From NCBI GenBank assembly GCA_973895155.1, contig OZ316891.1:17730095-17794094 (forward strand): 64,000 bases of DNA. Reading direction: 5' to 3'. Below the pieces are notes generated by a model that had not been told where the DNA came from, made no database searches, and worked only from the letters and a program-made list of their open reading frames with translations. The position numbers and the translations under genes were made by a program. Each line of letters begins with the position of its first letter. Position 1 is the stretch's first letter. Source of the DNA: Marsupella aquatica. Its lineage: Eukaryota; Plantae; Marchantiophyta. Shown one piece after another: positions 21,921-61,030 of the stretch.

Positions 21921-22027
21921 GGAACACATTTCCCCAAGATAACCTGCCGGAGGTTTATGAGGATGATGTCGGTGATACTGCCCATGGAGTTAAGCTGGTA
22001 GCGTCACTTTGTTGCCAGTCTAGGGGC
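21921..22027. repeat. 107-bp inverted copy of PTP1 intron-1 sequence (19490-19596)
   Basis: GGAACACATTTCCCCAAGATAACCTGCCGG...GTCTAGGGGC is the reverse complement of 19490-19596, with about 3 mismatches. Confidence 0.9.
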
Positions 22028-22867
22028 GTGGAGTGGCTTGTTAAAATTATGACTTCCCCCTCCATATTCTCCCCTCCCCTCCACTCCCTCTCCTGCCTCC
22101 ATAGCCACTACATTCAAATCTAGTTTTCCCCAAAGAAAATGCAACTTTTCTATAACAAATCAAATGTTTTTGCAGCACAATCCACCTGAACTTCAATTAC
22201 CATATCTTTGGACTGGATAGACAAAAATGAGCGTAGAGTAGCTTGTTGGAACCACAATTCTCCCCTCCATCGTCTTCCCTCCCCACTCTCCTCCTTCTCC
22301 TGCCTCCATAGCCACTACATTCAGATAGGAACTGCCCCTGCAAAAATTAGTTTTTTCAGTAGCATAGTTTTTTCAGCTTTGATTGACATATCTCTGGGTT
22401 GGACAGGCAAAAATGAGGGAGTAGCTTGTTGGAATTCTGGTTTATCCCTCCATAACTTCCTCTCCTCTACCATCCCTTTACTACCTCCTTACTAGACCGT
22501 TTTATTAGACCAGTTTACCCCTAGATTGCTGCCCAAATTGAGCTGCAATTTCTATCAATTTTTACCAGAACTGCAGAGGTTGTTGACTTTGCATTTTTTA
22601 TTAGTATTGGAGATCTTGTGAGTGGCCAACATTGCAAGAGAGGGCAAGCTTGGGGAAGATGGATTCATTTGTCTGCAATCAACTTCTTGAAGGAGTTTTG
22701 TGGCCTGGTCTTGGCTTGAGATTGGACATAAATTTCAAGCTTTCAGCTGGACTTATGAGCAATTGTTTCTAGTTTTGAAATGAATTACTATAATGCATCA
22801 TTGCTCTAGGCTGTGCTCAGTCTGCTTCAATTCACTTTGCACAATGAAAATTTGAGATTTCACTGGT

Positions 22868-23361: not shown

Positions 23362-24741
23362 CTAGAACTTCTTGACTAGATTCTCCTCCTTTATTATCAG
23401 ATATGTAAGCATCCTTTCTGCCCGACTCTGCATTGACAGCAAACTCTGGATCATCTTCACATTCACAATCTGACAAATCATCTTCCGGCTACTCACCTCC
23501 CCTCTCACCTCCGGCCTGTGCATGAGCATCTGCCAACTTCTCAAGGTCCACACTATTCTCTTGGTCTGAGATTTCTTCTTCACTGCCTTTTGTTGGCCCT
23601 ATACCCCTTGCTTGTGACAACATTGCATCACAAGCTGGGCACTTTCTCCTATCATGCCCGAGTTCCTTACAAATGGCTACATTGTCTGGGTCCAAGCTGG
23701 ATCCTCCGGTGAAAATCTTGGTCGTGCCTTTTCCGATGGGCGGCCCCTGTTCCGCTTGACCAGCAACTATCTCCCCACAAGTGTTGTTTGGCACAAGGCC
23801 ATCCTGCAAAATTGCTGGCACACTTCATGAATATGTCTGCTGAAATGTGAGAGTAGAATAAAATTCAGAAACATAGTCATATTGGCGCTTGTGCAACCTG
23901 GTGCAAGCCCTCCATGCATGGACACAAGGCAGGAAAATGTCTTGCCAATCTCAACACCTGCATTTCCATTCAGGTTCAAATTTGACCAAAAACATTATGC
24001 CTAGCTAAAAAGTCAGTAACCCTACACTCAGTAGGACATGAAGCATTAGCAATGAGAAGGGAGTCTTTCTCCTAAGTATCCCTCAATAGAGTCATAATGT
24101 TGGGCGGAAATGGTGTACTAGTGATTGATTCAGCAAGTTGTTGCTTCTAAAAATTTGTCATCATCATGTAGTCCCATAACGTACATATTGGACTGCTTGC
24201 AAGCCACTTCTTGTTGTTGCGGCTTCAAAGCCCTACTCAAGCTTTCAGCTTGCTGACTGGTTTCATGTCCCCATCTGCCAACAAAAATTGTTGGTGAGAA
24301 TAGTCACAAGCAACAGTACAATTGACATATGATGTTCAAACAAACTTATCATATACCTTTTAACTGGACAGACAGTTCAAGAATAGTGTTTGGGGTCTGC
24401 TGTCCTTTCAATGTACTCAGCAAGCCTTGTATTATTGGCTTTTTAATTTGTTTGAGCCTTCTCTTGAATTGCTCTAGAGAGGTAGTGTACACCCAAGGCT
24501 CAAAATCTTTTTCTTCTTGCTTGTTAAAGTGCTTTCTACAGAAAAACCAATGAGCGAGTGATGCAATGATATTTATGCAAGTTACTATCAAAAAGAAACA
24601 TTTACACAATAAGTGACGATGTAAAAAGTAGTGTACCTGCAATCATCTCCAAGATGCTAGGAGCCAAAGGCATGAAATCCCCTTCGGAAAATCTCTGCCA
24701 CACCATCCTACAAACCCTTTTCTCTATCTGAAATGACTACA
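23362..24741 (-). pseudogene. MULE (MuDRA-like) transposase, 3' part: DDE second Asp, SWIM finger, Zn knuckle
   Basis: VVISDREKG..FHAF..HL; RWGHETSQQAES; KCRC*DWQDIFLPCVHA (SWIM); CKELGHDRRKC. Multiple stops and frameshifts. Confidence 0.8.
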
Positions 24742-25567
24742 CACTAGTAGAAACCGGGGGGTATTTAGACCCCATTAAATGACTATTCAGTACCGTATAG
24801 GACTTGGAAACGACTGGGAAGGACTCCAGTCCTTTATAGGACTGCGAGTCGTATGTTTTGTTACTATAATCAACTGAGTCCTTTATAGAACTGGTTTATA
24901 AGTCGTTTAATAGACTGGATTTTCAGTCTATTTTAGTCTTTGTGTGGGTAGCTTTGGTGAGTCGTTTTCAGTCTTTTATGGGCTGCGATGATGAGTCGTT
25001 GGGAACGACTAAAAAGGTTATGGAGGGTAGTCTTTAAATATACTTTGTGGGGTATGTATAAGTCTTTCATGTCAACTGGATATGAGTGATGAAGACCCCA
25101 CTATACTACTTGGAATGAACCCACTCTTGTGCACAAATAACATATTGCATTCATGTTTTATTGTGTACTTGGAATGAACTCACTCTATAAGTTCACCATT
25201 CATCATGTTAACATTAGAATACATAGTTTCAGAAAGCCATCTTCTATACCATGTACACTAATATGAATTCACAGATTCAAACTTCATAGACTACAAAGAA
25301 GGTCACAAAGTATTCCTCTATACCATACACACTAATACTGAAATGATAAAATAGATTCAAGTATCATAGACAATCACCATAGAGCCATAGTTTGACATCA
25401 ATCACTTGTTTCATACATACAGAATTCAGAAATATCAATGTCACACACAACGTCTCCTTCATCCTCTTTACCAAATGGAAAAATTGGTACAGATATTTCT
25501 TGGATCTTTCCAAGGCAATGTCAAAATGTGACACAATTCACATGATTCTATCTACACTTGCATTCAG

Positions 25568-28500
25568 TCACTGCAGACTAACACACTCTGATGGCCAGAG
25601 CACAAGAGATCCTACTGCATCTGCAATTATTTCCTGAGGTGGATCATCGACTCTATTCGGAAATGGCAAATTACAATCAGATACAATCACTGTAGTCAAC
25701 TCGGAAATGGCAAATTACAATCAGATACAATCACTGTAGTCAACAACACTACTACATGGTCATCAGGGACCACTTTGCCATGGAATTTTGCATGATCCGG
25801 TCGCAAAATGCCTGTACCCACACATACCTGCGAGTCATCCTCCCATGATAGAAGATTATGGACTGGCTCTGCTGTGGCTATCACCTCCACCTTACCCTGG
25901 CTATTTTTCTTGGCTTTCCTGGGTGGCTTATACATGACATTATTCATACCTTGGTTGCGAGTCATGACTTTGGCACGAGTGTTTTGTGCTGGTGATCGAG
26001 AATTGGCTACACTCTTCTTCAAAGAATCTGCATCCATATTTGACACTTCTGATTGTGTAGCAGGATTTCCCTGCGACATCATCTCAGTATCTGCCAACAT
26101 TGTACTTGCTTCAATTGAAGCATCTACAATCTTACTTGCATCCAATGTTGCTCCCAAGTTTCGACGTCGCTTCACCCTATTCTCACTTGGTTGAGAGTCT
26201 GTCAACTCTGCATCAACTTCAATTCAGTGTCATGTCCAACATAAGTCAATCACTCATCACATGTGCTAAATGTACATGTCACCAACCACAAAGTTGTCAC
26301 TATCTCCTTACCATTATGAACAGCCTTCTTCCCCTTCTTTGCCATTGCCATATGCTCCATGTCTGCTTCTGTTGATCAATAAACACACCACAATATTCAG
26401 GTTGAATCTATTAACCACTGAATTGTTGCTCAACATTCATATAGAGGAATTTAAAGCATCAGCTTACCTGATACCTCCTTGGCTATGGTCACTGAGGCAC
26501 TGGGCACATCTTCTTCATTATTGCTCTTCAATCATGATGTCACTTTAGATCCCAGTTCATCCAACCAGTTCTTACAGAAAAGATTACCTCCAACCGGCTT
26601 AAGCTTCACAAAACTCCATGCACTTTTCAAATGTAATGTACTGGATCATAGCAGGTTACCTGTCTCAGCAACCTTCTTGCCCTTCTGCTTATTGATTACA
26701 GGGTCCTTCTCTGCCTCCACTCTTCCTGCATTCAAACCATTCACTCAATTCATGAAAACTTACTTCTAACATTTGAACATAGGACACAATGAACAATGGG
26801 CCGGTGTCATTTCCATACCTGTGTCAGATTTGCCAATTCCCTTTTTTGTTAACAAGGGTACACTTTGTACAATGTTGCCCTCATTGTTTGGTTGGGAACC
26901 ACCCAATTTTTCAATCACAAGCTTGAAATTAGATTCCACTGATGCAAGAAGGTTCGCTACAGATGCCTCCACAATATCCAAACGATCAGCCAATTTACTT
27001 TCCACTCGAGGGAGTCCACACTCTAATGACTTCAACCGTTCACACATCTCTGTGAGAGTTGTAACAGTTCCCTGTCATAACACAGCTTACATATCTCAGA
27101 TAACTGTCCCCAAGAACTGGTTGCTTACTTCCTACTACATTTCTTTCTGATGCTCAAGGCCAAATAGTCACAGAACATACAGAATTACAACATAATCACC
27201 TGTTTGGAAGTTACACTTGTCACCTCACTCCTTTGTTTCATGAACTCCTCTCTCACTTCTTGTGCTGATGGTTCTTCACCTGTCAATTTCTTCTGCAGTT
27301 CACATCAACATACATATGAATGAAACCAAGTGTTGATTGTCAATGAAAATGTAATAATGGTAGCAAGATGATAAGTTTGAGGCTTACTATCAGGCATGTC
27401 ACTGCCTTACCAATTGTTCTTTCACTGGAGCATAACTTCCTCTCCCAGCCTGTGAAAGGTGTTTCACTTTGCCTCGAGCATTTGACATCAGTTCACTCTT
27501 GCTCTGTCCAGCCTCCGACATGAACCCTTTGATTAACCGTGTCCATTGATCCAGTTCCAATGATGGGGGTGGTGGCATTCTCCTGTTAGAACCATTGTCT
27601 ATCCACATCCTTTTCAACCTATGCCTCTCTTGTTTCAAAATCCTCATTGCATAATCTGATATGCAATCTTCAACTGGGCCCTTACCATCATTACCAACAT
27701 ACTCCCACCGTTCAAGAATGTCCTTGCAGATAGCAGCCCAATCAGCTTTGTTCTGACTCCTAAACTTTGTAATGCTCAAATCTAACCAACGCAATACTTC
27801 TCCTCTTAGGTCAGAATGCCAACGGTTCTTACCATCACATGTGGGAGTTATCCAACCTTCGGAATTCACTTCTACTTTACCAAATTTGTTACTGTCTCCT
27901 GCCTTGGTACTCCCTGAAGCGCTACTAGGTGTCCCTCCACGGCCTGGTGTCCCCCCACGGCCTGGGGTCCCTCCACGGCCTGATCTCCCCCCACGGCCTG
28001 GATTGCATTGTCCAAACCTCCCTGGAGTCCCTGCACATTTACAGGATCCATTTACAGTCACTTACATTAGGTAAGTATGAATCATAAATCCTGCTGCCAA
28101 ATATACACTGGACTTCAGAGCAATTCTACAATGACCAAGTTACCTCTCCCTTGGCGCATAGATGGTTCTGGACCACCTGTCCTATTGCTTTGTCTTGATG
28201 AATTAGGGCCGTTTCTCCCGCCTGTGAATGATTGCCGCCTATTTGAACGTGGATGGCCTTTGTTGTTTTCGTGATTGTCCCAATCAGAGTCTCCATACCA
28301 ACAGGTACATGCCACACTCATGGACCTGTAAGATAAACTCTTTGCCCTAGCTACACATCAGATAAGTCCATATTGAGCTAAATCTCTACTACCATCACAA
28401 AATCACTAGCACAAGGCACTTACTTGTCCAATCATCCTCCTCACCTTTCCATTGCCCTCTGTACCCGTCTCTACCACGCTCTGGGTGTTCATATTCATCC

Positions 28501-28930
28501 CATCCATCTTCTGCTCCATCATAGTCATCATCATAATTATCAAGCGTCCCTTGCCAATAACTCTGGCTCCTTCTAGGGTATGGATTATGTGATTTCTCTC
28601 TAGCTGCCCACCTACCTGGGACTTGATGAGGGCCCTGTGCAGGATGCACAGGTGCATTTTTCTGTGAGCCCCCTGCATCTGGGTCTCCATCCATATCCAA
28701 TCTTTCCTCTTCACCCCACTCTCCAAGCCCCATGTCTGTCTCCATGTCATCACCCTCTTCCCCCATAGCTTCTGCACAGCACCCACAACCAAACAGGGAG
28801 AATCAGCACACTAAATTCAAAGTATCAATCAATTTCATGCATATCCAACTATCCTAAACATCATTCCAGGCAGCAATTCCCGTTCTGTGACTCTGTGCAG
28901 GTAGTCATCCTCAACCTCATACTTGCCAAT
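25568..28930 (-). pseudogene. CACTA TnpA-like multi-exon gene
   Basis: Exonic pieces: acidic N-terminus, PGRGG repeats, ..QERHRLKR..PPPSLELDQWTRLIK..SELMSNARGKV..AGRGSY (Ptta/En/Spm type), a coiled coil, and C-terminal FHGKVVPDDHVVV..LPFP..DAVGSLVLWP. A 44-bp tandem duplication (25657-25744) frameshifts the last exon. Exon limits are approximate. Confidence 0.75.
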
Positions 28931-28943
28931 CGCCAGCTGTTGC

Positions 28944-31900
28944 CTATTGCAAATCATCAACCTCATCATATTCCATTTGCCCAGGTTCATCATATGTCTC
29001 TCTCAATATTAAGGGGATGTAGTCAGTCCCTACCCGAGTTGGAAGTACAGTCTCATGACTAGGATGCTCGAATGCAGCATGGTCATCCAAACTGAACTCT
29101 ACTTTACTTCCATCCATCCGCCTGTTCCGTGCTTGGCTATGGCATACCACCCTCCAGCCATGTGACTCCTCCACATCTGCAAAGAAACCCTGTTCAACTT
29201 GGCTAGGGAAAACAAAAGGCTCAGACCATTCTGGTACTCTGGACCTAAAATTGGCCAACAAGAACCCATCATGATCACGCTTCATGGTGGCCCTTGGTCT
29301 CTGCCACTCTGATTTCACCCATGATCCCTTCATCAATATCACTGGGACACTTGTGTTACCATAATTCAACACCCAAATGTCGGTCAACTCCCCCACGTAA
29401 CCCATCTTCATCCACCCCCTCTGTTCTTCAGAGGTTCTCTGCTCAAACACAGAAATCAAACCACAATCATATGATACACAATGGTCACCCTGCTCATCCC
29501 TCACTCGATAATGATTTCCATAAGCTCTCATCCGTTTGTAGGTCAGAATAGACAATCGTGGTGGCACAGATAGAAGATACAAATCTTTCTCCATATCTGG
29601 ATGATGTCTACTATGCTCTCAAATTGTCACCCGAATCCACTGCTCGAACTATGGGAAGGGATCCTGCTGCCTAGAGTGTGCAGCTTTTTGCATATCATAT
29701 TCCCTGCAATATGAGGTACAGGCATAGTTAGGTCTAAACAACACATGACAACCTAAGATCACCCTTGGAACAGACAAGAAGCATCACAACAAAGGCAAGT
29801 CAATTCAATCACTCACCTCCACCATGGTTGCATAGGCTCTGTGTTTGCCAGCACATATGAATGAGCCTTGTCTCGAATCGCAACAAGCAGCTGAATAGCA
29901 CATCCCACACCTTCAACAACCTCGCCACTCACTCCATCATCTTCACCAGATTTCCAAACTCTTGTCATAGCTTCACCAGACCCAGCCATGTACTCTGTTA
30001 GGAATCCCAACGTCTCATCCTTAATGTACCCCAATGCCATGGAAGCCTCTGGCCTGTAGTATGTTCTCACATGACCTTTCAACAACTTCATGTATCGCTC
30101 CATAGGGTACATCCATCTGGTACTGACTGGCCCATACTGCCCTAGCTCTTCTACCACATGGATTAGGAGATGAGTCATAACATCAAAGAAAGCAGGGGGT
30201 AGTATATCTCCAAGTCACAGAGGACATAAGCAGCATCCTGCTTCAACTGCTCCAATCCTTGGGGATCCCACACTTTCACACATATACGGCGAAATACATT
30301 GCATAGTCAAAGAATGACATTACGGACTGGTTTCTGCATGAGACCTCTGAGGCATAGGGGCAGAATGTGCTGCATCAACACATGGTAGTCATGTGTTTTC
30401 ATACTGCCAAGTTTATTCTTTGTAATATGCTTCTTGAAGGCACTTTCAGACAGCTCAATCTATACAAGAATGTCTTCCATTCATCCTGTGTGCACACATA
30501 GGGAGCTTGGAACTTGAGAAGTACATTGGGATTGCTTGCATGGGGCTTCAACCAAAGGTGAGGGCCAATCCCCTTCTGTTGCATATCAGCTCGAACTGCT
30601 CCTGTATCTTTCTCACCCGACAAGAACTTCAGCAAGCTCTCACAAATATTTTTCTCAATGTGCATGACGTCCACATTGTGTTTGCTGGCCTCGAATTCCT
30701 GCACTCCACAAAGCAAAGAATTCAACAACAGAAACACTAATTAACCACATAGGAGGATTGTAACCAACATCAATCCACCATTGCTCGTATCTAAAATTGC
30801 AATCATACAGGGGCTGGAGGCTAAGTACATTACCCTCCAGTACTCCAACTCCAAGTCCATCAAGGTCTGTCTTTTCACACCGTGTTTCACCACTGGATCC
30901 TCGGGTTCTCGATCAGTGGCACTTCTCTTGTCCCAATCAGCCTTCCTGGCTGCCCACCTCAGGACTTGCTCTCTGGTGACCCTCTGTGGTGGGCCACGAA
31001 GCTCTGTTTTGTTGTTGAAGTGTGCAATTTGAGACCGTGTGTGCCTGTAAGGATGATCAACAGGCAGATACCTTCTATGCCCCTGAAATTTCATACTGTG
31101 CAGGGCATGCGACCACTCACTTGTCACATTTTTCCCACATGGTGTGCACCCCACATAGCCCTTTGTCACTCGTCCAGATATGATGCCATGGCCTGGGTAA
31201 TCTGCTATATCCAGCAAACAAATTGCATGCAGTCTAAAGGGGCTGGGTCGAAGAAGCCCCTTCAGAACATCATGGGTTAACACCCCTTCTATCCACAAAG
31301 TCTTCCACTCTTCCACTGCTGGAGCCAACATGATATCTATGAATTGCTCGGTCACAGAAGCTGGTCCAGGGATTAACAACACCATCATGACAAAAAACCT
31401 CTTTGTAGTCATCCATGGGGGAAGGTTGTAATTTAGCAGCGTAACCGGCCAACATGAATAACGGTTGTTTTTGTCTCCAAATGGGTTTACTCCATCCAGT
31501 GATAGACCAAATCGAAAGTTCCGCTTCTCTACAACAAACTGTGGCCACCTCTCATCAACAAATTTCCAATGGTTGGAATCTCCAATGTGACGTTGCAGGC
31601 CATCACTGCTCTTGTTATCAGGAGTCCATGTCATCAGCTTGGAAATGGCAGGGCATCTAAACAGACGTTGTAGTCTAGGAATGAGAGGAAAATGACGAAG
31701 AACCTTGGCAGGATGTGTACATTTCCCTACATTCTTGTACCTGTGCTTACCACAATGAGGGCATGTCAATTTATCTGCATGCTCTTTGCGAAAGAGAACA
31801 CACCCATCAGGGCATGCGTCAATAGACACATAGTTCAGCCCAAGGTTAGACATCAATTTCCTAGCCTCGTACATATTTTTTGGAATTGAATTACCATCTG

Positions 31901-32929
31901 GTAACACATTTCGGCGCAGGAAGGTCAACAACTCTGTCACAAATATATTGGGAACATTGTGATTGCCACAGATGTTCAACAACAACACGACAAAACCCAG
32001 CTTGGAGCAGTTCGACCCCTCGTAGATAGGAATGCAAGCTTCTTTGATGTGTTTTGGGCCCCCAAACACCCACTCCCTCTCTGCTGCACCTTCCCCAATG
32101 TCAAAGTCAGGTTCAGCTTGGCCATCGCCAATGTGTGGCTGCGGTTCATTGTCCTCTTCTGATTCCACTGTGTCGTAAAAAGCATCAAGGTCTTCAAAAA
32201 TCTCTTGAACCATTCTTGGGACATCCATCCCACCGTCCTCAGTGACTGCCTTTGCCTCTCCATCTTGGTCATCCACGTTCTCATGTTGGACCCCAGGACC
32301 ATCCTCTGCACAGTCTATGTCCTGCTCTCTCGGGGGTTTCACTTCCACAAAAATGGCACATCACGTGCGACGAAGTATAGGGTTGATTTATTGGTTTGAA
32401 GGGAAGACTTAAGAATTTTTGTAGAAGAACAATAGGGTCCTTTAAATTCAATTTTGAGACTTATAAGAACATTAGGGTCTTTTTAACCAAAATTTTGGAA
32501 TATTCCAAGAATATTCCAACTTTATAGGGGTTGAAAAATTAAAAAAAATTCTTATATTTTAGGGGGTCTGAGGCCTAAAAACGTCGCAGGGGATGGGGAG
32601 ACATCCATATAGTGAGACCCCTGAGCCTGCTCTACGTAGTCTCTACGCCTAGCTGTATTAGAATCCACAAAGTCAGCTCTCCACTCTTCATCAGAGGAGT
32701 CTTCTTCTGCTGGTACATTCCAAACCCTCCACCGAGGGTGTCTTTCATGCCGCAGCAGGTGAAGGTGCACAGTGTTCAAACTCAACGACTTGAATCCTTG
32801 GCACTGTGTGCATGGGCATCTCATCCTCCTACTCCTACCTTGGGCGGCCCGGGCTTGTTCACGCATCCACAATTTAGAATCATGATGCCTAATCCTAAAT
32901 GGGTTGTGAAGAGGCAACCTTGGAGCCAT
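28944..32929 (-). pseudogene. CACTA TnpD transposase (Transposase_21/DUF4218/DUF4216 type), disrupted
   Basis: RCPCTQC..VHLHL; IDACPDGCVLF; LRHFPLIPRLQRLF; LSLDGVNPF..YSCWPV..NYNLPPW; DYPG; DVMHIEKN; KTHDYHV; MTHLLIH..GPV..RWMYPMERYMK; EPFVFPSQVEQ. Broken by a MITE (32362-32592), a frameshifting deletion near 30435, a TGA near 30307 and a frameshift near 30200. Confidence 0.92.
32362..32592. mobile_element. 231-bp MITE inserted in the TnpD coding sequence, AT target duplication
   Basis: at|CACGTGCGACG ... CGTCGCAGGGG|at. Removing the element plus one AT restores the TnpD frame (..MDVSPCAIFVEVKPP..). Confidence 0.85.
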
Positions 32930-33282
32930 CACTATACACACGCACTCAGCACCCTATCATTTTATTATGCAAGTGAAAAATACACTTCCTGTTAAGGATT
33001 TCACCCCCGACTGTACTTGCCAAAATACGTAACATTCCAAAAAAACAAAAAAACAAAAAATATAGGTGCCTGAGTCATGTACCTATTCTCAAGTGAATGA
33101 GACAAAATTCCTAAATGTTTGAGGGTGTCAACTCCTCCGCTGTCCTCACATGTATTGCCTCTGCACGTACATCCATGACCATATCAGAGTCCAATCATGT
33201 ATAGTCATAGACACAGGTGCCAGGTGCGAGACCGGTGTGAGATGTCCTCATCTTACTACCACATCAAATACGGATACCAATC

Positions 33283-33789
33283 CTATTGTCGATGCCACTC
33301 AGCCCTGAGGTACTCAGGCATGTACATTAAGTCATCAAGGTCTAAACCCTGCTCATGCCATGGTGGTCTTCGATCCGTGCCTACAAGCAGTGGTAGCAGT
33401 GCCCTCCATGGTGCACATGTTGCTACTAAGTCCCTCCACTGGGTACTAATTAGTCTATATTTGCAGATATCTTGTGCGCCAGACACCACAAGAACCCTCG
33501 GCCAGACATGTGTAAGAACTATATCATCTGCCAAATCAGGCAACAAGGAACCACCTACAGCATCGTGCTTGTCTAACTCATCTGCTGAAAAGTAAATGTC
33601 CTCTTCCGACTGTGCATCCTCATTCACCACAGCATTCACAACACATCCAAGGTCTGCAGGCATTATCTCGGATGGAGCTACACTCTGTCTGGTTACCAAC
33701 CCACACAAGTAAGCCCAAGCAGTAGCCATGCACGATGCAACCCGTAGGAGGACCCTACATAGGGCCTGACGGTCTGGAAGAGGCAGCAT
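33283..33789 (-). CDS. F-box-motif protein carried by the CACTA (possibly C-terminally truncated)
   Basis: LLPDLADDIVLTHVWPRV..CKYRLISTQWRDLV fits the F-box consensus LP.E/D....I...L.........VSK.W..L. The stops after 33283 are TAG/TAA/TGA, explainable as C-to-T of Gln/Arg codons. Confidence 0.6.
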   Translation of the reverse strand: MLPLPDRQALCRVLLRVASCMATAWAYLCGLVTRQSVAPSEIMPADLGCVVNAVVNEDAQSEEDIYFSADELDKHDAVGGSLLPDLADDIVLTHVWPRVLVVSGAQDICKYRLISTQWRDLVATCAPWRALLPLLVGTDRRPPWHEQGLDLDDLMYMPEYLRAEWHRQ

Positions 33790-33965
33790 ACCCACCAAAG
33801 TCTTCAACCAAACAGAGCCCAGCAAGTAGATTCACAGTCACACCCCACACAGCAGGAAACAACAATCACTTCAACTGCGACCAACCATGACAAGATGAGT
33901 TAGTTCAAGGATCACATTTATTACAAAATTGTGATTTATACAAAAATATGAGGGACTCCTACTCC

Positions 33966-34814
33966 TCACTCTCTCCCACCTTTGCTAAGCATACATCTCC
34001 GCTGAATCTTGGAGGGCCAGGCCTCAAAAATATCAAAGTCCCAAGCATGCTGTCGCTTCCCTCTAACTGCTGATTCCAGAAGCCAATCAGGGGAAAGCAC
34101 CCAAAGATTGTTGTTCATGACAAAATCACGCACTATTGTCTTAAAGAATTTTCTGCATATTTTCATGTATGACAGACCTACAACATGAGTGGAGGTTTCT
34201 GTTAGACTCTCCTCCACTGTCCCACCTAGCTCAACAACTATGGACTTGTATAGTCTGCACTTAGTCTCCCCAATTCCTTCTTCTGCAAATACCACACTGA
34301 ACCCCTTCATAATGGTATTTCTCTCCTTGCCATGCTCATTCAATATAGCATCTGCACGCATAGGATGGTGTCCTATGTTGACAACAGGTCCATATTGGAC
34401 AGAAGCAAAGTTGGGTTTCTCTGCCGCTGCTTCATAGGCTTCCTTTTCAGCCAAAGCCTCTGCAGTGGCCTCCTCACTCTCCCACAACTCATATTGCTCA
34501 GTACTCTGTACACACCTATGTTTAACAGAATCGGTCAGCCAAGAGACTTCAACTACTTTTAGACCTTGGTTGGTAATGGCAGAATCAATGAAGGACCATG
34601 ACCACTTGTTCATCACATCCAGCCATGTCCCCGCAACAACATGTGTAGTCTGTGGAGTGATGTCCTTGACTTCAGTCCCATGGAACTCTGAGAATCGTTT
34701 TTGTACGATTGGCCAACTCACTTGGGTGAACCCATAGTGGCCAGGAATCAAAATGGCTTTGATTCCAGCCAACAGAGGCGGGTGGTCAACCTTTGTACGT
34801 TTCCTAGAGGCCAT
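33966..34814 (-). CDS. Tandem BRCT-domain protein (DNA polymerase lambda-type BRCT), intact 282-aa ORF in the CACTA
   Basis: Two repeats: LLAGIKAIL..HGT..TTHVV..VVEVSWLTDSV and MKGFSVVF..GIG..ELGG..STHVV..VLSPDWLLESA..FDIF, with the BRCT GG, THVV and W..(D/E)S hallmarks; basic NLS-like N-terminus (RKRTK). Confidence 0.85.
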   Translation of the reverse strand: MASRKRTKVDHPPLLAGIKAILIPGHYGFTQVSWPIVQKRFSEFHGTEVKDITPQTTHVVAGTWLDVMNKWSWSFIDSAITNQGLKVVEVSWLTDSVKHRCVQSTEQYELWESEEATAEALAEKEAYEAAAEKPNFASVQYGPVVNIGHHPMRADAILNEHGKERNTIMKGFSVVFAEEGIGETKCRLYKSIVVELGGTVEESLTETSTHVVGLSYMKICRKFFKTIVRDFVMNNNLWVLSPDWLLESAVRGKRQHAWDFDIFEAWPSKIQRRCMLSKGGRE

Positions 34815-35412
34815 GTACACACGGGCCACCTAATCACTACAGACCAGAAGATAATGCGTTCACCTGATAATCGGAGGGCCCTTAAAATGCTGCGTTTATA
34901 ACTTGGTCCAGTCCAGTCGTCTGGTGAGTCTCTGCTCCGATTCCAAACGGGAGAAATATTGGGACAAACATACTAGACACCTGCAAGCATGCACCTCATA
35001 GTTTGAATATGTGCCTTCACAATATTGAAGGTGACAAGTGCAATTGTTTTGTGATGCCACATACAGATGTTGTAAATGGGCAGACATTCAATGAGAATAC
35101 AAAATGTTGGTACACTTTAAGGGAATTCTCACAAATTAAATAGCCTTGTAACTTATATGCTCATAATGAGAAGTCCTGATTTAATTTAAGCAGTGTCATG
35201 TAAGTCGTGATCAAAATGATTGCAGAGTTAAAAAAGTTCCTAGAAGGCTTAAGGGGAGTTTTTGAAGGCATGTACCCAGGAACAAGTAATGAACTTAGGG
35301 TACTTGTTGCCTAAGCATCCTCTCCTACAGAGGTCCTTCTTCTCAAAATTGGAATGTCTGCAATCTCCAAGGTATCCACATCAGGTGCACTATGCATGTA
35401 CATTATTCAGGT

Positions 35413-36093
35413 TCAAAGCCAAGAAATGTGATCTCTCATGGGAGTGTGCAAAGTAGGATCTATGGCATGGCGATGACAATAGAAGATCCATCGATCAACA
35501 CCATGTGCAGAGTGATCATAGATGTGTCTGTCACAAGCATAGCCTTCTGCTTGACGCTCCTTCAAACAATGAAAGTGCCACATGGTGGGACACCTAACAC
35601 AGTGGACTATGTCCACCCAGAAATCTTCATCGTGCTGACCACATGCCTTGCACTTATGAAGTGGGCAAGTTGTGGCAAGATCGGGCAAACATGAAAAACA
35701 AAAGAACCTCACACAATATCTGTCAGGGCATTTCCTAACAAGTGGTGGAGCATCAACAGAGCCCTCATAAGACCCCAACTTCCCACACTGTGCACACTTA
35801 GCCTACTTCTCCAAACAATTAGTGCACATCCAGCCTCCCTGGTGTGCTGACGGGAGGCCCACCCCTGGACAGTTGTTTTCTACAGCAAGGTCAGACTCTG
35901 GGTTGAGGTGGAAATGCCTCATGCAAGGGCCCTCACATATGGCTAAGCCACCACCATCGTCACAAATGGCACAACAATGAGCTGCCTTCTGGAAAATCTG
36001 ACTTGCGGAGAAGTTACTACCATCTGGCCCAACTACACCTGTGTTGCTCACCTCTGTCCCCCGCTTCTTGGCTCGGATTTTAGGGCGTGCCAT
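35413..36093 (-). pseudogene. EDM2-like (NSD-type) PHD-finger cluster; one ORF of about 226 codons with a single in-frame TAG at 35803-35805
   Basis: CAICDDGGGLAICEGPCMRHFH..WMCTNCLEK*AKCAQCGKLGS..CPLHKCKAC..CVRCPTMWHFHCL..IFYCHRHAIDPTLHTPMRDHI aligns by eye with recalled Arabidopsis EDM2 (CAICDNGG..CEGSCLRSFH..CPLHKC..CRRCPKSYHRKCL..IYCQEHEID..TPVRDHV). The two listed ORFs are in the same frame. Confidence 0.85.
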
Positions 36094-36758
36094 GCCTACG
36101 CATGAGACAGATAGTACAATTTAGCAGAGTGCACAGACAATACAATTTAGTGCAGTGTACAAAAAGTACAGTGTAGCATATAGACTAGAGTGGCAATTGC
36201 TACTGCAATGAAATGTTCACACACATGTGCAGAGTAGACATACTTTTTGGTTTGTTGAGCCCACACTAAAAACTGATCCCCTCAATAGCTCCACCTACAC
36301 CTAAATTTTGTGGCTATGATTCACCAAAGGAGATCTGCAACAAGATTTAATGCATTCGAATCACATATAACAGTCGTGACATGTAAAACAGGCATTTTTT
36401 GAACAGGATTGGTATCAAGCACTGTGATCAGGGTTGTAATTTATACATCCTAAATAGGCTATGATAGTGAATGAGACAAATAAGTTAGGCAAAAATCACT
36501 TTTTCCAGGTTATCACATGGCCCATTAATTCCAGTCTTTGAAAGGAGACTTTTAAGTGAGCTTGCTAGCCTCTTAAATTAGGATATTGTACTTAGTGCAG
36601 CCATAATAGGATAAGTTATGTACTGTTGACCCTAAACCCTGGACCCAGAATTGGTCATAATTCAAAATCTTAAGTAAATATCCTCTCTGTTCAAGTCAAA
36701 GTGTTAAGTTATAGGTCAATGGTCTCTGGTTTGTGCATGCGGTGTGACAAGTGGTCCT

Positions 36759-37208
36759 CTAGAGCGTGTGATCCAAACATGTGTAGACACCAAAGTGACC
36801 GGTGGTGGGGTCTGGGAGGGCAGGACAAGTGACATCGCCAGGCACACTGCAGGATGGCGAGTGGTTCCAGATGATACATTGTGCTCTGTGAAAAAACCGA
36901 CATCCAAGAGAACGGTCATCCAACTCTAGGCCAGAAGCCCTACAGGCAGGACAGTCATATTGGCAACTGTGCACACACCCTTGGGCCCTAATTTGTGGCG
37001 GGTCATGTACGAGAGACAGAAATACCAAGGATGTTGGGAAGGGTGGAGAAGCAGGTACAGGCCGGCTGTAGTTGTTCCTGGCAACAACTGGGTACTCAAA
37101 GTACCATGCAGACTGGGCTGGAAGGATCCCAAGTCTGACATACTCAAGGCGCAACATCTCTGCCTTGCGTGCAAGCCGCACATGTTCAGCGTTGCGGGTC
37201 CTCACCAT
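36759..37208 (-). CDS. Cys/His-rich hypothetical protein (149 aa) in the CACTA
   Basis: ATG-initiated ORF co-oriented with the other cargo; basic N-terminus (MVRTRN..RLARK) and CVHSCQYDCPAC..CRFFHRAQC cluster. No family recognised. Confidence 0.45.
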   Translation of the reverse strand: MVRTRNAEHVRLARKAEMLRLEYVRLGILPAQSAWYFEYPVVARNNYSRPVPASPPFPTSLVFLSLVHDPPQIRAQGCVHSCQYDCPACRASGLELDDRSLGCRFFHRAQCIIWNHSPSCSVPGDVTCPALPDPTTGHFGVYTCLDHTL

Positions 37209-40200
37209 AAGTGTTGCTTTTGTGGAGATGTCGTGTGTTCACGTCCTCTGATAAGCACCTTCGATCAGCAAGGTGAGCAGGAGCTGTACTTGCCTCACCA
37301 ACAGCAACCAACCTTAAATTATCAGTTCCCACTCACTGTGTCATTCCATTGGTTCCAGCTAGGGGTCACAGTGTAAACATAGCATGAAACACTCCTAATC
37401 AACTTGCTTACAAACTACAATATCCAGAAAGAGTGAAAGTCTCACCCTCCAGTGAGCAGCAGAGAGGTAGTTCACTAGATGTGTTGATGTGCAGTTAAAC
37501 CTCCACTATTGCTTACTTCTGGTGTATGCTGCTCAGAAGAAGACATATTAGTAGCAGCAAATTGCAAATAATGGCCATAAGCAAACCGTGAGAGTTTGCA
37601 GAATGCTACAACAAATCCATCACAGCAGTGCTCCACAGGAATGAAACCAAGCAAAATTTGGTGACCTCGGCCAATGACAAGGCCAATGTAGTGAACAATC
37701 CTTGACCGATCAGGATATGGATTGGAATTACAATTAGTCAGCTCTTCTTCTTTGTTTTCTAACTCTGGGGCAAATGAGCATGACCAGGGAATTCTTTGAG
37801 AAATAGAAGTGCACAGGGAAAATGAAATTGGCTCATTGAGTTGCGCAAGACCGACCACTGCAGCATAAACAAACTCATGAAGAGGCAGAAAGGATAGCGT
37901 TGCCACAAGCGCAAAATCCCAACAGGTTTAAGTTGCAAAAAACTAACCCCTCCAAATGTGATTGCAACGGTGTTGAGGTCGTCTGTTCACCACCCCACTC
38001 CACCGTGGGAGCATTGGGCACAAGGCATGTTCGGATCCAGGGAGGAGAAAAATAGTCATGTGAAGCAACAAGTGTGGAGAGACCAATAAGTAAACAAAAA
38101 TAGGGAAGAACAATGCGGTGATCATGAGCAGCAGGAAACAAGAAAGTTGATTTGGGAGGGATTGTAGGGACAGAGCTTTTGGTGGGCTTGGCTGCGCGTT
38201 CATATCGGAAGATAGATGCGAGAGAGTGTGAAGAGGGTGGCAACCAACAAAGGCAGTGGCAAGCAAGCAAGCAATACACGATGATAACGGCAATCGGCAA
38301 TGGCGGTGGGAGGCAGCAATAGGCTAAATGAATATTCAGTACCAATCCGCAGCTCGTCCGATGAGAATGAGTGACATGAGGAAAATGCCAACACACTGAC
38401 CCACTACCAAGAAGAAAGAAAACCAATCTCAACCACCCTCTATCATCAATGACAGGACATATATTCAAAAATCCAAGCTGCAATTGATGGAAACAACAAC
38501 ATAAACAGAATTCTGAACATAAACTGCTCATGAAGCTTTCGGGATCATATATTCCAAGAGCAAATGTGAACATGCCAATATATGAAAGCTCTGGCATACA
38601 GTTCATTGCATTCCATAGAGACGTCTGCACCAAAGAGCTTGGAAGCAATTGCCTATCTGCTGGAAGCAGGAAACATATATGTAAATCCCAAGCCCATACT
38701 ACATTGGAGATGATCAGCTCACTCAGACAGACATTGCATTTTGATTAACCAAATGTAGCAGGCTAGCAGTGGGACGAAGGATAGGGCCAACACTAATGCA
38801 CAGCAGTGAACAACTATGATTAACCAAATGTCAGTAGCAGGCCAGTAGAGGGACGGAGGATAGGGCCAACACTAATGCGCAGCTGTGAAAGACTGACAAA
38901 TAGAAAGCAAACAAGAGCTTCAAATATAGAACATCAAACCTTCTGCAGCGGTCGATGGGCTTTGATTCACAGGTCGCCTGGCTCGGTCCCTTGTCGCAGC
39001 TCGCCCAGCTCCACAACACCGTAGACAAGGAGTTGGTTGGTCCAATTTCCACCATGCAGCGTTAGCAAAATGGCAATGCTTGATCTTCGCCCTCCGCCCT
39101 TTGCCCGAACCCCAAAATATCACAAGCACAGCTCCAACGTCCAACTGGCAACCCTCCCCCGAGCTTGCTTAGACGAAAATCAGCATAGCATAGCTGAGTT
39201 CAACGGAAATCATCTCAGCACCCACCCCAGCTGAACAAAGCTCACACAAGAGCTCATACGGGAGCTCACTATGGGAGTAAAAGAAAAATAGGAGGGCCGT
39301 GTGGCGCAACTACATGGACCTGTCAAACTCAGCGCCTCCTGAGAAGAACATTCCTGTCCGACCGCGACTGTAAAACCCTTCAAAACACTATGAACAAACA
39401 CTCACCTCTGACTTGTAACTTTGTCAATGTGGCCGACAAATCCCAGAGCGCTGCCGAGCTTGGTTGTTGCTCGAGTTGTAACAGTGCTCAGCTCAGCGAC
39501 GGTGACCCTAAACCAAATCCTTCGTCTCTAAGTCCGCACGTCTCTTAGTCCGCAGCGCCGACCACAAGAAAGGTGGAACACTAAACCTCACTATACAGTA
39601 GTGGCCGTGAATGCCCGTGAATGCCTGCAAAGACAACACAATAAAGTGCAAAGGGTTAGAAATGTGGCGGGATTAGGGTGTGACAGAGTGTGGAGGTGCA
39701 AAGTGTATGCAGAGTTGACCCTCCAACGGATGCTCCAACTCGCTCCCCTCCAACGGTCGCGCAAGTAGAAGCCCCGGCCCCTTGGGATTCCCTTACCGTA
39801 GTTCGCTCCAAAGCCAATGCCTTCTGTAGCAGGAGCGATCACCTCTACTGAAGCAGCTTCAATCGAACACACAACAACGGGGCGGGCAGCGACAACACTA
39901 ACAGTGAACGATAGACTACTCAAACGACCTCAAAATGGAACAAAAGCACGAGAAAACATTGAGGCAGAAGGCAAGTCCCTAGCACCAGGCAACCAAAGGA
40001 TCGGGACCAAAGGAAGGGATGACATGCCATTCCAACAACGGGAAGGGGGAACGGGACGCGGGAACGGGCAATATTTTGATGGTGGGGATGGATGCCGACA
40101 ATCCAATGGTCCCTAAACCCCCATCCCCTTAACATGCAACCCCCGACCCTTGACATCAAACCCCCCCTAAACCCCCTTTAGTGAAAACCCAGCCACCCCC

Positions 40201-40879
40201 TAGCCTTGACATATAAACCCCCTAAACGTCTTGACAACTCGACTGTGGCCATACTATCTTTGCAATGCCAGGGGCCATTTTTAGAGTGCCGCTTGCAAGC
40301 TCAGGCTCTCAAGATCCTCCCAAGGCAGCAAACAAGTTAGGGTCCCTAAACATGTTCCTTTACCCTAAACCATTGCATCACTATTTCAATCGAGTGTTCT
40401 TCGGCTGGACAACCCCCTAACCCTAAACCCACACCCCCTTGAGACCGGTACAAATCTACCTTTGTGCATCTCGGCCTTTTATAGATGGAGTTAGTAATCG
40501 ATCCCTCCGTAGTCCACTCTCCATGAACCTCACTCCAAAACCTTTTTGGTCACAAATAAGGCCATTTATTGAGTTATGCCCCTTGCTATCACCCTCTTTA
40601 TAGAATTACCCCTCCTCAACATAAGTGAACATTACCCATGATGTGCTAGACTATTCACCGTTCACAAAGTAGCAAGGTTACTTCTCATAGTCTTTTAGTG
40701 AACCATCAAACACTAATAGTCTTTTGTAGTCTTCAACAAAACCGGTGCAATGGGTGCGAGTCGTTTCAAGTATGGAAAAAGGACTTAGTGGGCTTAGTCC
40801 TATAAGGTATGGTCTAAATTGCCCCGGTTTCTACTAGTGACAGTTCTTCCTAGGGCCAACTCATGTATAGCATTTTTAT

Positions 40880-41290
40880 TGTTGAGCATAGACGACAATC
40901 GCAACGGCAAACCCATGAACCATCCAACACACAAGAGTTGACACAGAGAGATACGTGGTTCACCTCCTCATGAGGCTATGTCCACGGGAACACACATGAG
41001 CTTTACTGCACTCTAGGCCGACCGACCATACCAAGCATCCACAACGCAAGCTCTCTCTATCTCTCAACTAGCTCTATAATAATGAGCCTGAGTTCCCACT
41101 CTCCAAGCAAACACCGCTTGGTTATAGAGTGTGCACAACATGACTAACTTAACCAAGTCTGCGACTAAGGTTAGCCTTAATTACGATATAGTCGTAACTC
41201 TAGACCTAAGAGTAAATCGTAACACTAATTAATTGTAAAAATCTCAACTATTGTGTGGGGTTTCCAATGGGAACCATACAATACTCAAGA
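40880..41290 (-). mobile_element. Solo LTR (Copia-like), no matching TSD
   Basis: Ends ..CTCAACA on the minus strand at 40880; contains the U5-type CCCGTGGACATAG..GTGAACCACGT motif; homologous to 60688-61030. The other end is 41249 or 41290. Confidence 0.7.
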
Positions 41291-41510: not shown

Positions 41511-44437
41511 CCCTACAAAGAGAAAGCAACATCAAATTCAGCATCTGGAATTAAAGCTCACCTGAAAGTGCACATGGTCATAGAGTTAAGCAACGATAGC
41601 AAACTAAGGGCAACTATTCAATACGAATGCATAGACGTAACACACAGAAAAGACAATCTTTGAATCACAATCACACAAACAAATGAGAGATAATGCAACA
41701 ATTCAATCACAATCCCACAGAGAAAGAGCAGAGTTTATCAAGCTCACATAGTTGAAGAAATTGATCAAATTCCTACCAGATCATAGACATTTGAATAGTT
41801 GCAATTTGATTGTTGTCTTCAGTTGTGCTTGAACACTTGTCTATGGAGATAGGAGCCAGCTGCTTATGGAGCCATGTTGTCCAATCACAAAATCTCCAAG
41901 ACAAATAAGAAACACACAGTCAACAACCTCTGAAATTTTGGTAAAAACCGACAGAAATTGCAGCTCAAATTGGGTAGCAATCTAGGGGTAAAATGGTCTA
42001 ATGTGGAGGTAGTAAAGGAATGGGAGAGGAGAGGAGGTTATGGAGGGGGAACCCACATCCCAACAAGCTACCCCATGCTCATTTTTGCCTGCCCAAACCA
42101 AAGATTGATATCTCAAATCAACGTTGAACAAACCGTGCCGCTGGAAAACTAATTTTTGCAAGGGAAGTTCCAATCTGAATGTAGTGGCTATGGAGGCAGG
42201 AGAGGAGGGGAGACTATGGACAGGAGAATTGTGGTTCCAACTAGCTACTCCACTCTTGCTTTTGTCTATCCAATCCAAAGACATGCTAATCAAAGTTCAG
42301 GTGAATTGTGCTGCAAAATTGATTGTTTAACAGAAAAGTTGCATTTTCTTTGGGGAAAATCCAATTTGAATGTAGTGGCCATGGAGGCATGAGAGGGAGG
42401 GGAAGGGAGGGAAGAATATGGAGGGGGAAGTCACAATTATAACAAGCTACTCCACGCTCATTTTCACCTACCCAATGGAAAGATACATGACATATATCAA
42501 AGTGGAAGGTCTGCTGTCACTATCAACTCCTATTTCCTTAGGCAAAACTGTAAGTCCTTTATTCACTTTGCATTTTCTTTGGGAAAAACGTGAATGCAAT
42601 GTTTGTGTTTCTCTCCTATGCTACAAGCATTGATTAGGAGCCGACGGGATTGAGAGGAACCAACAAAAAACATCAGGGAGAGGTTTTTGACAGCGGGAGA
42701 GGGCTGGCAGGGGGGAGCTCACACTAGGCGACCAACCCCTTCAGTTGGGGCAGAACAAGTTGGGCAGAGATTTTTTGAGGGAAAATTCCCACCATTGGAT
42801 GCATACATGTGGCATGATTTCAGCCGTTGGATGAGTATGAGTTAAACATAGGTGGTTAACTTAACCCCTGCTGCAAAAAGGTGGCATTCTAGTAAATAAG
42901 CATGACAAGGTAATAATTTTGCAATAAAAAGGTGGCAAAGCAGTAAGTCTCAATTTTCAAGTGGCCACTCTCTAGCATTTGGGGAAAGGGAAGCAACCGG
43001 CTGCCCAGCCTAGTAATGACCCAAAGGCTTTGATTTTGGACACCTCCTGACTGGGAGAATTAACTTACTTTGTTCTTCCCAAAAATTTCCTAGCGTGTGA
43101 AGACAAAAGACAATGCACTGCCCATGACATAGTGCATGCCCTATACTTTAAAAAATGCCCTCCTAGGGATTCCATCAAGGCACTTTGATTTTTGTCCATA
43201 ATTTCTTAACTTAGTGTCATCAAGAGAATGCATGGCAATGACACAATGCTCAATATTGTGACAAAATGCTCCTGGCTTGCTACACTAGGGAGGGAAAGTA
43301 CTCTCAGGCCATGGGTTGCTGGTGCTATTTGTTTAGACGTTTACAAGGGGAGGTTTTGGGCTCTGGTGGGGACTTGCTTGCTTTGATTGCCTTCTTTGTC
43401 GGGAGGATTCTACTGACTTGGTTTGTTTTATACGTCGCAAGATGCTATGGGTATTGTGGAATGGTAGGAATAAGAGGGTATTTACTCAAGCGGCTGCCAT
43501 TCGCCCATTCATTTATTTTTGCCTAGTGCTCTTAAATGACTGATCCTTTGCAAGTGGTTAGCTTAATTGCATACCCCTAAGCAGGAAACTTATGTGTCCA
43601 CTAAGTGCAAAAGAAGTGCTTATTAGGGAAAGAAAACTATTATGGGCGCACAGTGGCACTCATTTTCTTTAGGAGGAAATTTTCATTGGTTTGTGAGTGT
43701 TAGAACCAGTTTTATTGTTGGCTAATTGGCATTCAGAAACACTAAAATACTATGAGCTATGGGCCATGTCTTAGGTAGGATGTGGTGTTTGCTGTCTTTT
43801 ATGGCTTACAGCCTGGTTCTGCCCTCCTTCAAGGAATTGTCCTTTTATGTTCCTTGTTCTTTTGGGCTGTATTACTTCCCCTTTCTGTAGGGTTATCACG
43901 GTTTAAATAGGGGGTCTCAAATATTGGGCCAGGCAATTCCTACAGATGACCGTTTTAGGTGGCGGACGCGGCTAAAACTTGTACGACACTCCCTCTGTGT
44001 GGCCTGCACACTCATATTGTGGCAATTTACCATTTCCCGAGAAAAGTTTGGCCCGAACGGTCAGCACAATTTAAATTGGTGGTCTAACACTCTTATCATC
44101 CTGTCATACACAAATTTCCACTCTCACAAGAGGGAAATGCTATCGCAATCAAGTTGGGAGCTTATCGTCGACGATCGCGAATTGATCAGAGGTGCATAAC
44201 GGAGTGTGTGTCAATGGAGAGTGTTTCAATCAGACGTCAAAGTGTTTAGAGTTTAGCATTGACAGCCAACATTGGGAGCTTATCATCAACGGGACGCCAA
44301 TGCCAGCAAGCTTGAATCAACAATCTTGTGTAAGTTCTTTTGACTCTTGACATGCATGCTCTGTTGTCCACTCTTGAAGTACCATGCATGAAAATATTTG
44401 GGGCCTGAGTCTAAATTTTTCTTTGCCATAAAAAGAG

Positions 44438-60687: not shown

Positions 60688-61030
60688 TGTTAGGCATTTT
60701 TACTTAGATCTAGAATAATGACCACAGTCATAGTTGGACTAATCGTAGTCATAGACTTGATTAGGTTAGGCTGCTGCATCCTATGTACACAAGCAATGTT
60801 AGCTTGTGGAGTAGGAACTTGGATTCATTTTTATGGAGCCATTGGAGCATTAGAGAGAGCTTGTGTTATGGACACTTGGGATGGCCACGGGCCAAGAGTG
60901 CAGTAAAACTCTTGTATGTTCCCATGGATGTAATCCCATCGGAGGTGAAAAATGCATTTCTTATTATCGATTACATGTTCATTGGAGTATCACATGTGCA
61001 TGCCCTTGGGAGTATCATCTTCACTCAACA
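60688..61030 (+). mobile_element. Solo LTR (343 bp) with 5-bp TSD TTTTA
   Basis: TTTTA|TGTTAGG...CTCAACA|TTTTA; shares AGAGAGAGCTTG, AGAGTGCAGTAAA and TTCCC(A/G)TGGA blocks with the LTR at 40880. Confidence 0.85.

Follow-up and report, generated by a model that had tools for sequence, protein, structure and literature searches.

Cut-and-paste transposons gain copies only through repair of the excision gap from a homologous template, or through excision after replication. Because copy gain depends on the gap-repair template or on the timing of excision, the choice of repair pathway matters to these elements. The accessory proteins known from transposons mostly counter silencing. Those of TIR transposons are an established class, as set out in the portion of PMC12973397 available to us. 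Table S6 of that survey (1007 genomes, elements of 2–12 kb), in the same portion, holds three BRCT rows, all RTT107-type singletons; one belongs to an accessory protein from a CACTA element (1 of 775 clusters), and none is named plain BRCT. Full-text literature searches pairing BRCT with transposon terms gave, among the matches listed, no title or abstract start describing transposon-encoded BRCT proteins. Transposon accessory genes are already known as a class, and a two-BRCT cargo is a variant of which no description was found.

The window analyzed here is a stretch of 64,000 nucleotides from Marsupella aquatica. The original prediction placed a gene for a stand-alone tandem BRCT protein (33966–34814) inside a cut-and-paste transposon. 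Scanning the window for CACTA...TAGTG pairs gave nine candidates, and only the pair at 24742/40839 combined a perfect match with identical 3-bp flanks. This pair bounds a CACTA transposon of 16,098 bp (24742–40839), with perfect 18-bp TIRs at 24742–24759 (plus strand, similarity running to ~30 bp) and 40822–40839 (minus strand), and with the target-site duplication ACA at 24739–24741 and 40840–40842. On its minus strand the element carries, in this order, PHD, BRCT, F-box-like, TnpD-type transposase and TnpA-like genes, a domain set that would fit a plant host. The TnpD-type transposase (28944–32953) contains Transpos_assoc, Transposase_21 (E 4.9e-59), DUF4218 and DUF4216 domains; with the CACTA TIRs and the 3-bp duplication, these domains assign the element to CACTA/En-Spm and confirm the predicted location of the BRCT gene. 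The TnpA-like second gene (25696–28061) probably has several exons, and a Transposase_24 match in 27399–28061 (E 0.014) falls below the curated cut-off.

Long inverted repeats at 22.0–22.6 kb and 41.9–42.5 kb were rejected as the element ends, because the true TIR/TSD pair lies inside them. These repeats (22026–22635 and 41871–42485) consist of 83–95% complementary blocks ~19–20 kb apart that enclose the CACTA element. They represent either an older element of foldback type or a dispersed repeat present twice in opposed orientation. A further inverted pair (40970–41135 and 60775–60939) shows 74–80% complementarity. The bin adjoining the right TIR had very high sequencing depth in all runs, and the CACTA element therefore lies beside or within another abundant repeat. 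At 50438–57047 (plus strand) the window holds a Ty3/gypsy-type retroelement with protease, RT, RNase H and integrase. Between its protease and RT lies a match to C-5 cytosine methyltransferases (PF00145, E 6.2e-6, 53052–53936). Gypsy-DNMT3 elements have been reported for streptophytes, according to the available part of a preprint (bioRxiv 10.64898/2026.05.21.726589).

The window copy of the CACTA element is dead, its transposase being both interrupted and frameshifted. The disruption of the transposase ORF at 32321–32625 contains a MITE-like insert of 297 bp (32329–32625; 32321–32633 with its 8-bp target duplication), the TIRs of which are imperfect and ~14 bp long; contigs of sequencing runs X1, X4 and X5 join 32320 to 32626 in frame. 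Near 30194, a one-base difference shifts the transposase frame in the window, and all four runs have one base more. The PHD ORF has one in-frame stop in this copy (35803–35805). In the same decayed copy, the BRCT ORF is whole.

The BRCT ORF is flanked by two other cargo ORFs on the minus strand. An F-box-like ORF at 33283–33831 is a stop-to-stop frame with an uncertain start (PF00646, E 0.082, below the cut-off); it carries an acidic stretch and lies directly downstream of the BRCT gene. A multi-PHD ORF of NSD type at 35413–36093 (PF23011, E 7.8e-6; PF23004, E 9.4e-6; both just under the cut-off) has a basic N-terminus and is a candidate chromatin-reader cargo. The three cargo ORFs, each in a single frame, run head to tail upstream of the transposase. 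Farther to the right, the element holds a 148-codon frame on the opposite strand (36930–37376, plus) that weakly matches a FYVE-like zinc finger (E 0.009, below the cut-off), and an open frame of 289 codons at 37875–38744 (minus strand).

This arrangement on one strand would suit an anti-silencing or chromatin-targeting module, in which the PHD protein reads histone marks, the F-box-like protein recruits a ubiquitin ligase and the BRCT protein bridges the two, the target being something other than DNA repair. We take the PHD ORF to be EDM2-like, although Pfam assigns only an NSD-type PHD. A literature search for EDM2, PHD and CACTA gave, among the papers listed, no title on such a PHD cargo. 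In the available parts of the sources, EDM2-type PHD proteins influence transposon silencing (PMC3632883), and epigenetic cargo is described as TET/JBP in EnSpm and other elements (PMC12730594) and as VANDAL accessory proteins (PMC12973397). The argument is, however, one of adjacency; the F-box match lies below its cut-off, and the PHD ORF is stopped in the window copy. We consider this module quite unlikely.

The BRCT gene itself (33966–34814, minus strand) is an intact, intronless ORF of 282 aa, running from ATG to TGA without an internal stop. A possible TATAAA promoter element (34895–34900, minus strand) lies 86 nt upstream of the ATG, and a possible AATAAA poly(A) signal (33917–33922, minus strand) lies 44 nt past the stop; both are sequence matches only. 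BRCT was the only Pfam family matched by the protein (PF00533, E 1.7e-13, 51 bits against a cut-off of 21.3, in two stretches), and the scan found no catalytic domain. An AlphaFold2 model built on a 12-row alignment contains two BRCT folds, at aa ~12–111 (repeat 1, 34482–34781) and aa ~165–264 (repeat 2, 34023–34322), with a mean pLDDT of 80.5; the single-sequence model reached a pLDDT of only 31.5. The alpha3 Trp residues W92 and W244 are invariant, in agreement with membership of the BRCT superfamily. Thus, the predicted stand-alone tandem BRCT protein without a catalytic domain was borne out. The packing of the two repeats is modeled with low confidence in the domain orientation (pTM 0.48; linker pLDDT below 50 at aa 134–153). 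A conserved linker helix follows repeat 1 on its C-terminal side (aa 114–131, 34422–34475; T117 in 11/13 rows, E123 in 10/13), and the N-terminus is basic (4 K/R among the first 12 aa). The C-terminal tail (33966–34010) is short and basic in the window protein and acidic in its closest relatives; the net charge of the last 30 aa is +3 in the window protein versus −6 to −9 in those relatives, and run X1 has no listed indel there.

To place the protein in a family, 1.84 billion representative sequences were searched with HMMER, giving 15 proteins of 62–313 aa at E ≤ 0.001; P0021, P0018, P0020 and P0027 came from additional searches and from cluster look-ups. Eight relatives of 264–321 aa share the arrangement in two repeats, and their identities are 61, 53, 29, 29, 26, 25, 25 and 17%. 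The longest relative has 321 aa, and no polymerase or other enzyme domain was found in the 17 family rows scanned. None of the relatives bears a specific name (three are labeled 'hypothetical protein' and one has a domain label), and no named host parent was present among the 15 representatives and their clusters. Among longer proteins of 549–2000 aa, 0 of 7632 matched the family, which is a weak negative. A second search of longer proteins gave 5 matches out of 7993, comprising two family members, two REV1 (E 1.1–1.8) and one Rtt107 (E 3.6), and is likewise weak as a negative. Matches in the ESM Atlas were confined to generic BRCT clusters, none above 0.90, and a viral fold library gave one match at E ≤ 0.001, which was uninformative.

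The residues conserved in the family beyond the generic BRCT positions are W64 and W73 in repeat 1 (both 13/13 rows), T117, and R229, D261 and E264 (each 8/9). Both repeats share a long alpha2 region specific to the family, which suggests an internal duplication. A tree of 26 repeat rows split roughly into repeat-1 and repeat-2 types; with weak deep branches and one outgroup, it is silent on the origin of the family (P0007, P0010, P0015, P0016, P0017, P0019 and P0023 were omitted as duplicates or fragments). Weak matches to RTT107_BRCT_5 occurred in 4 of the 17 family rows. The CACTA row of RTT107 type in PMC12973397 may for this reason be a relative of the twin-BRCT family, of which that survey, in its available part, may have caught a glimpse.

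When the ORF was mutated at random to 61% or to 53% identity, 0 of 300 copies remained free of stops in each case, which suggests long-term constraint; the argument is biased, in that databases contain only called ORFs. Searches for the DNA loci of the relatives yielded nothing, with 0 of 486 and 0 of 590 pattern matches in metagenome contigs, and 0 of 1 and 0 of 45 in viral contigs. Since these searches gave no DNA context for any of them, the distant relatives could be host genes.

Other copies of the element were sought in sequencing runs. Ten runs from eight studies hold the BRCT stretch wholly or partly, with at least half of its words present in five; no RNA run is listed among them. Over 16 bins of the element, run X1 had a median depth of 2455, compared with 43.6 in the left flank bin (~56x). 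Near-identical contigs of this run covered the BRCT ORF at a depth of 1767–1931 (0–2 differences per 161–421 nt) and the transposase at 1817–2073, where summed contig depth is no copy number and the BRCT gene is covered by choice, the runs having been found through it. In runs X2 and X4, the BRCT bins had about half the depth of the transposase bins, and runs X7 and X9 had too little coverage to use. Among the contigs listed, none bridges the BRCT gene and the transposase. The presence of high-depth contigs within ~1% of the window sequence suggests a young element family. With a depth of 35265 in X1, the bin of the MITE-like insert greatly exceeded all other parts of the element. Over the right part of the element (37432–40351), depth dropped 10- to 50-fold in all four runs, and this part may be variable or subfamily-specific.

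Run X1 also contains a second version of the BRCT gene, ~85% identical (22 differences in 142 nt), at a depth of ~1600–2000 and with no stops or indels among the rows listed. Substitutions were counted on the 40 of 49 difference rows shown. The 26 differences assigned to the second X1 version comprised 9 synonymous and 17 non-synonymous changes (22% synonymous expected, p 0.10), the 14 differences in one X8 contig comprised 3 and 11, and six rows near the window-type version comprised 3 and 3. None of the differences shown creates a stop, and no indels are listed. The counts in the X1 and X8 contigs therefore give no significant signal of recent purifying selection on the BRCT ORF.

These counts do not reject neutrality, as would be expected if the gene were a passenger, that is, a host gene, processed or without introns, from a BRCT family restricted to one lineage, captured in the manner of Pack-CACTA elements and amplified without serving the transposon. 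Capture of gene fragments is frequent in CACTA elements, according to the available parts of PMC8978399 and PMC6379663. What the window holds is, however, no fragment but the entire ORF, accompanied by TATA-like and AATAAA elements. Two diverged versions persist at high depth without listed stops or indels, and the 15 representatives and their clusters supplied no named host parent. A mere passenger is, in our judgment, very unlikely.

The original prediction also likened repeat 2 to Pol lambda's BRCT domain, which it described as recruited to Ku-containing end-joining complexes. The recruitment is supported by the available parts of PMC12056208 and PMC12910108, in which the domain binds Ku through helix alpha1; the key contacts are R57 and L60 (PMC12056208), with R55 as a further contact (PMC12910108). 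The motifs quoted in the prediction are present in repeat 2, and those it gave for human Pol lambda agree with the sequence of 2jw5. Against four family profiles, the human Pol lambda BRCT (2jw5) had whole-sequence scores of 32.3, 22.9, 30.6 and 33.6 bits. The corresponding scores were 33.1, 35.6, 34.9 and 33.9 for the best BRCA1 chain and 33.0, 34.0, 29.7 and 34.3 for REV1. The 2jw5 alignment spans repeat 2 in full; it has a single gap of two residues, and none in alpha1. In one profile search, its single-domain score (31.7 bits, versus 29.5 for BRCA1 and 28.5 for REV1) was the best of the five alignments shown. Pol lambda was absent from the single-sequence searches of the PDB, including those with repeat 2, P0021 and P0014.

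Structural comparison of repeat 2 ranked 2jw5 24th of 50 (Z 10.7, rmsd 3.1, 99 aligned); the other Pol X structures scored Z 10.1 (9g9l), 10.6 (TdT) and 8.7 (Pol mu), where NMR and cryo-EM targets, such as those of Pol lambda, may score lower. Pol X chains did not figure among the rows listed in two other fold searches. The best folds were the PARP4 BRCT (Z 16.2–16.4; at Z 16.2, rmsd 1.7 with 96 aligned) and XRCC1 BRCT2 (Z 14.3–15.5). Human Pol lambda aligns over the full repeat, but the data do not support a specific resemblance: this human form, the one compared, ties with or trails BRCA1, REV1, Rad4 and Rtt107. The BRCT of plant Pol lambda may be closer to the family than its human counterpart, as in a short alpha2 motif resembling KFGK (P0001, P0006, P0021). 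An origin of the twin-BRCT family from Pol lambda is possible on the sequences compared.

The Ku contacts were then compared in alpha1 of repeat 2. Numbered from the alignments, the window residues at the human R55, R57, L60 and F61 positions would be E183, K185, L188 and Y189. At the R57 position, the nine rows of repeat 2 have K, K, T, S, R, S, A, Q and W (Arg in 1/9, basic in 3/9), the L60 position is hydrophobic in 5/9, and the S116 position is never Ser. The Arg and Leu that bind Ku in Pol lambda are, as judged from these alignments, not conserved across the family. The lyase and polymerase domains of Pol X occur neither in the window ORF nor in the 17 rows scanned, and no Pol X protein was found among the 7632 and 7993 longer candidates, which is weak evidence.

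These data bear on a reading close to the original prediction, in which both repeats derive from a plant Pol lambda BRCT, and the protein sits where Pol X would bind the Ku70/80 bridge, blocks or steers gap-filling NHEJ at excision sites, and thereby favors homologous gap repair and copy gain. The full-length alignment, the window K, L and Y at R57, L60 and F61, and the assumed proximity of the plant domain fit this reading. According to the available part of PMC12056208, recruitment of the Pol lambda BRCT alone to damage depends on Ku, and catalytically dead Pol lambda is dominant negative. The Arabidopsis Pol lambda BRCT binds Lig4/XRCC4, and a role at transposon excision sites is reported (PMC4444747, in its available part, citing Roy 2013 and Huefner 2011). 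Against it stand the ties with other BRCT families, the structural rank below PARP4, the variable contact positions, with an acidic residue at R55 in the window protein, and the lack of a Pol X protein among the longer candidates. Blunt end joining in human cells is also unaffected by loss of Pol lambda (PMC12056208, available part), so that a Ku decoy would alter gap filling more than it would block NHEJ generally. We regard this reading as rather unlikely.

Descent from the tandem-BRCT tail of DNA ligase IV, with the protein sequestering XRCC4, was considered from the structural side. Foldseek placed the BRCT region of ligase IV (9cq3; E 1.2e-11, 278 columns) in its top row, but with a TM-score of 0.29 and an rmsd of 21 A. 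Both proteins have two BRCTs and a 40–60-aa linker beginning with a helix, and a single stretch of profile A2 (21.8 bits) takes in the two repeats of ligase IV; yet ligase IV scored ~10 bits below BRCA1 and REV1 in all four profile searches. A tandem-BRCT fragment of ligase IV reportedly acts as a dominant negative, in work from 2009 by Wu. The XRCC4-interacting linker of ligase IV has a GDS(Y/F) core, and this core occurred in 0 of 27 family sequences. The alpha2 region shared by both repeats also points to an internal duplication. Such a descent is hardly credible.

We hypothesize instead that the intact two-BRCT gene is an accessory gene of the CACTA element, kept by selection, whose product serves as an adaptor or decoy for host DNA-damage or chromatin proteins. 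This is our best reading, and we hold it tentatively, at a little under an even chance. It is based on the TIR/TSD-bounded element, the equal depth of BRCT gene and transposase in X1, the second version without listed stops, the survival of the BRCT ORF where the transposase and PHD ORFs are broken, the eight two-repeat relatives without an enzyme domain, and the loss of every stop-free copy under random mutation. The kind of partner is suggested by the matches in sequence and fold, nearly all of which are BRCT proteins of the DNA-damage response or of chromatin. The gene would be expressed from its own TATA box, and the basic N-terminus would direct nuclear import. The binding surface would consist of the alpha2 tryptophans W64 and W73 of repeat 1 and the linker helix, rather than the Ku-binding alpha1 of Pol lambda. 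As a non-enzymatic adaptor or decoy, the protein would hold a host damage-response or chromatin protein at transposase-made breaks and shape their outcome. Against the accessory-gene reading, the relatives could be host genes, the depth of the BRCT bins falls short of the transposase bins in X2 and X4, the substitution counts carry little signal of selection, and the acidic C-terminal tail found in its closest relatives is missing from the window subfamily.

A stronger form of the proposal is that the twin-BRCT family is old, transposon-encoded and descended from an end-joining factor of the host, with plant Pol lambda as the likeliest source, and that it steers the choice of repair pathway at CACTA excision breaks in a streptophyte lineage, together with captured PHD and F-box genes, helping to explain the high copy number. 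We find this extended version doubtful.

An enzyme-free BRCT protein in a high-copy CACTA family, if kept by selection, offers a candidate case, open to direct tests, of a transposon that acts on the DNA-damage response of its host. The surface conserved in it is distinct from those known to bind Ku or phosphopeptides, so that its partner may reveal a new BRCT binding mode. If the stronger form of the proposal is true, the protein would be a dedicated repair modulator of a eukaryotic DNA transposon; if it dampens end joining, it could provide a small tool to raise gene targeting in plants.

Comparison with described systems shows that the element is built like CACTA/En-Spm transposons with accessory or captured genes, having CACTA TIRs, a 3-bp TSD, a four-domain transposase and extra ORFs upstream of it. 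Unlike the cargo of Pack-CACTA, of TET/JBP-bearing EnSpm and, by analogy, of VANDAL elements, its cargo includes a complete two-BRCT gene.

Repeat 2 shares with the Pol lambda BRCT (2jw5, 9g9l) the fold, the gap-free alpha1 and the three window residues at R57, L60 and F61. The protein differs from Pol lambda in having two repeats, no Ser/Pro region or polymerase, a longer alpha2 of two helices, and better structural matches elsewhere.

The phosphopeptide-binding tandem BRCTs of BRCA1, MDC1, TopBP1/Rad4 and Rtt107 also have two repeats and similar profile scores. The window protein differs from the BRCA1/MDC1 type in its long, partly disordered linker, and the rmsd over both repeats is 13–21 A, the model orientation being of low confidence. 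S1655 and K1702 are the phosphate-pocket residues of BRCA1. In the family, the S1655 position is Y, F, M or V in repeat 1 and Ser/Thr in 1 of 9 repeat-2 rows (Thr), and the alpha2 Lys position is an invariant Trp in repeat 1 and Lys in 6 of 9 repeat-2 rows. A phosphate pocket of the BRCA1/MDC1 type in the first repeat (Ser/Thr-Gly after beta1, with the alpha2 Lys) is thus absent from these rows.

The C-terminal tandem BRCT of ligase IV is alike in its two domains and in its long linker starting with a helix, and is unlike the window protein in the XRCC4-binding core of that linker and in the low scores between the two. The single, non-phospho BRCTs of PARP4 and XRCC1 (BRCT2) are closest to repeat 2 in fold (PARP4 rmsd 1.2–1.7 A over 93–96 residues), but the identity is only 14–16%, and a common fold proves neither descent nor function.
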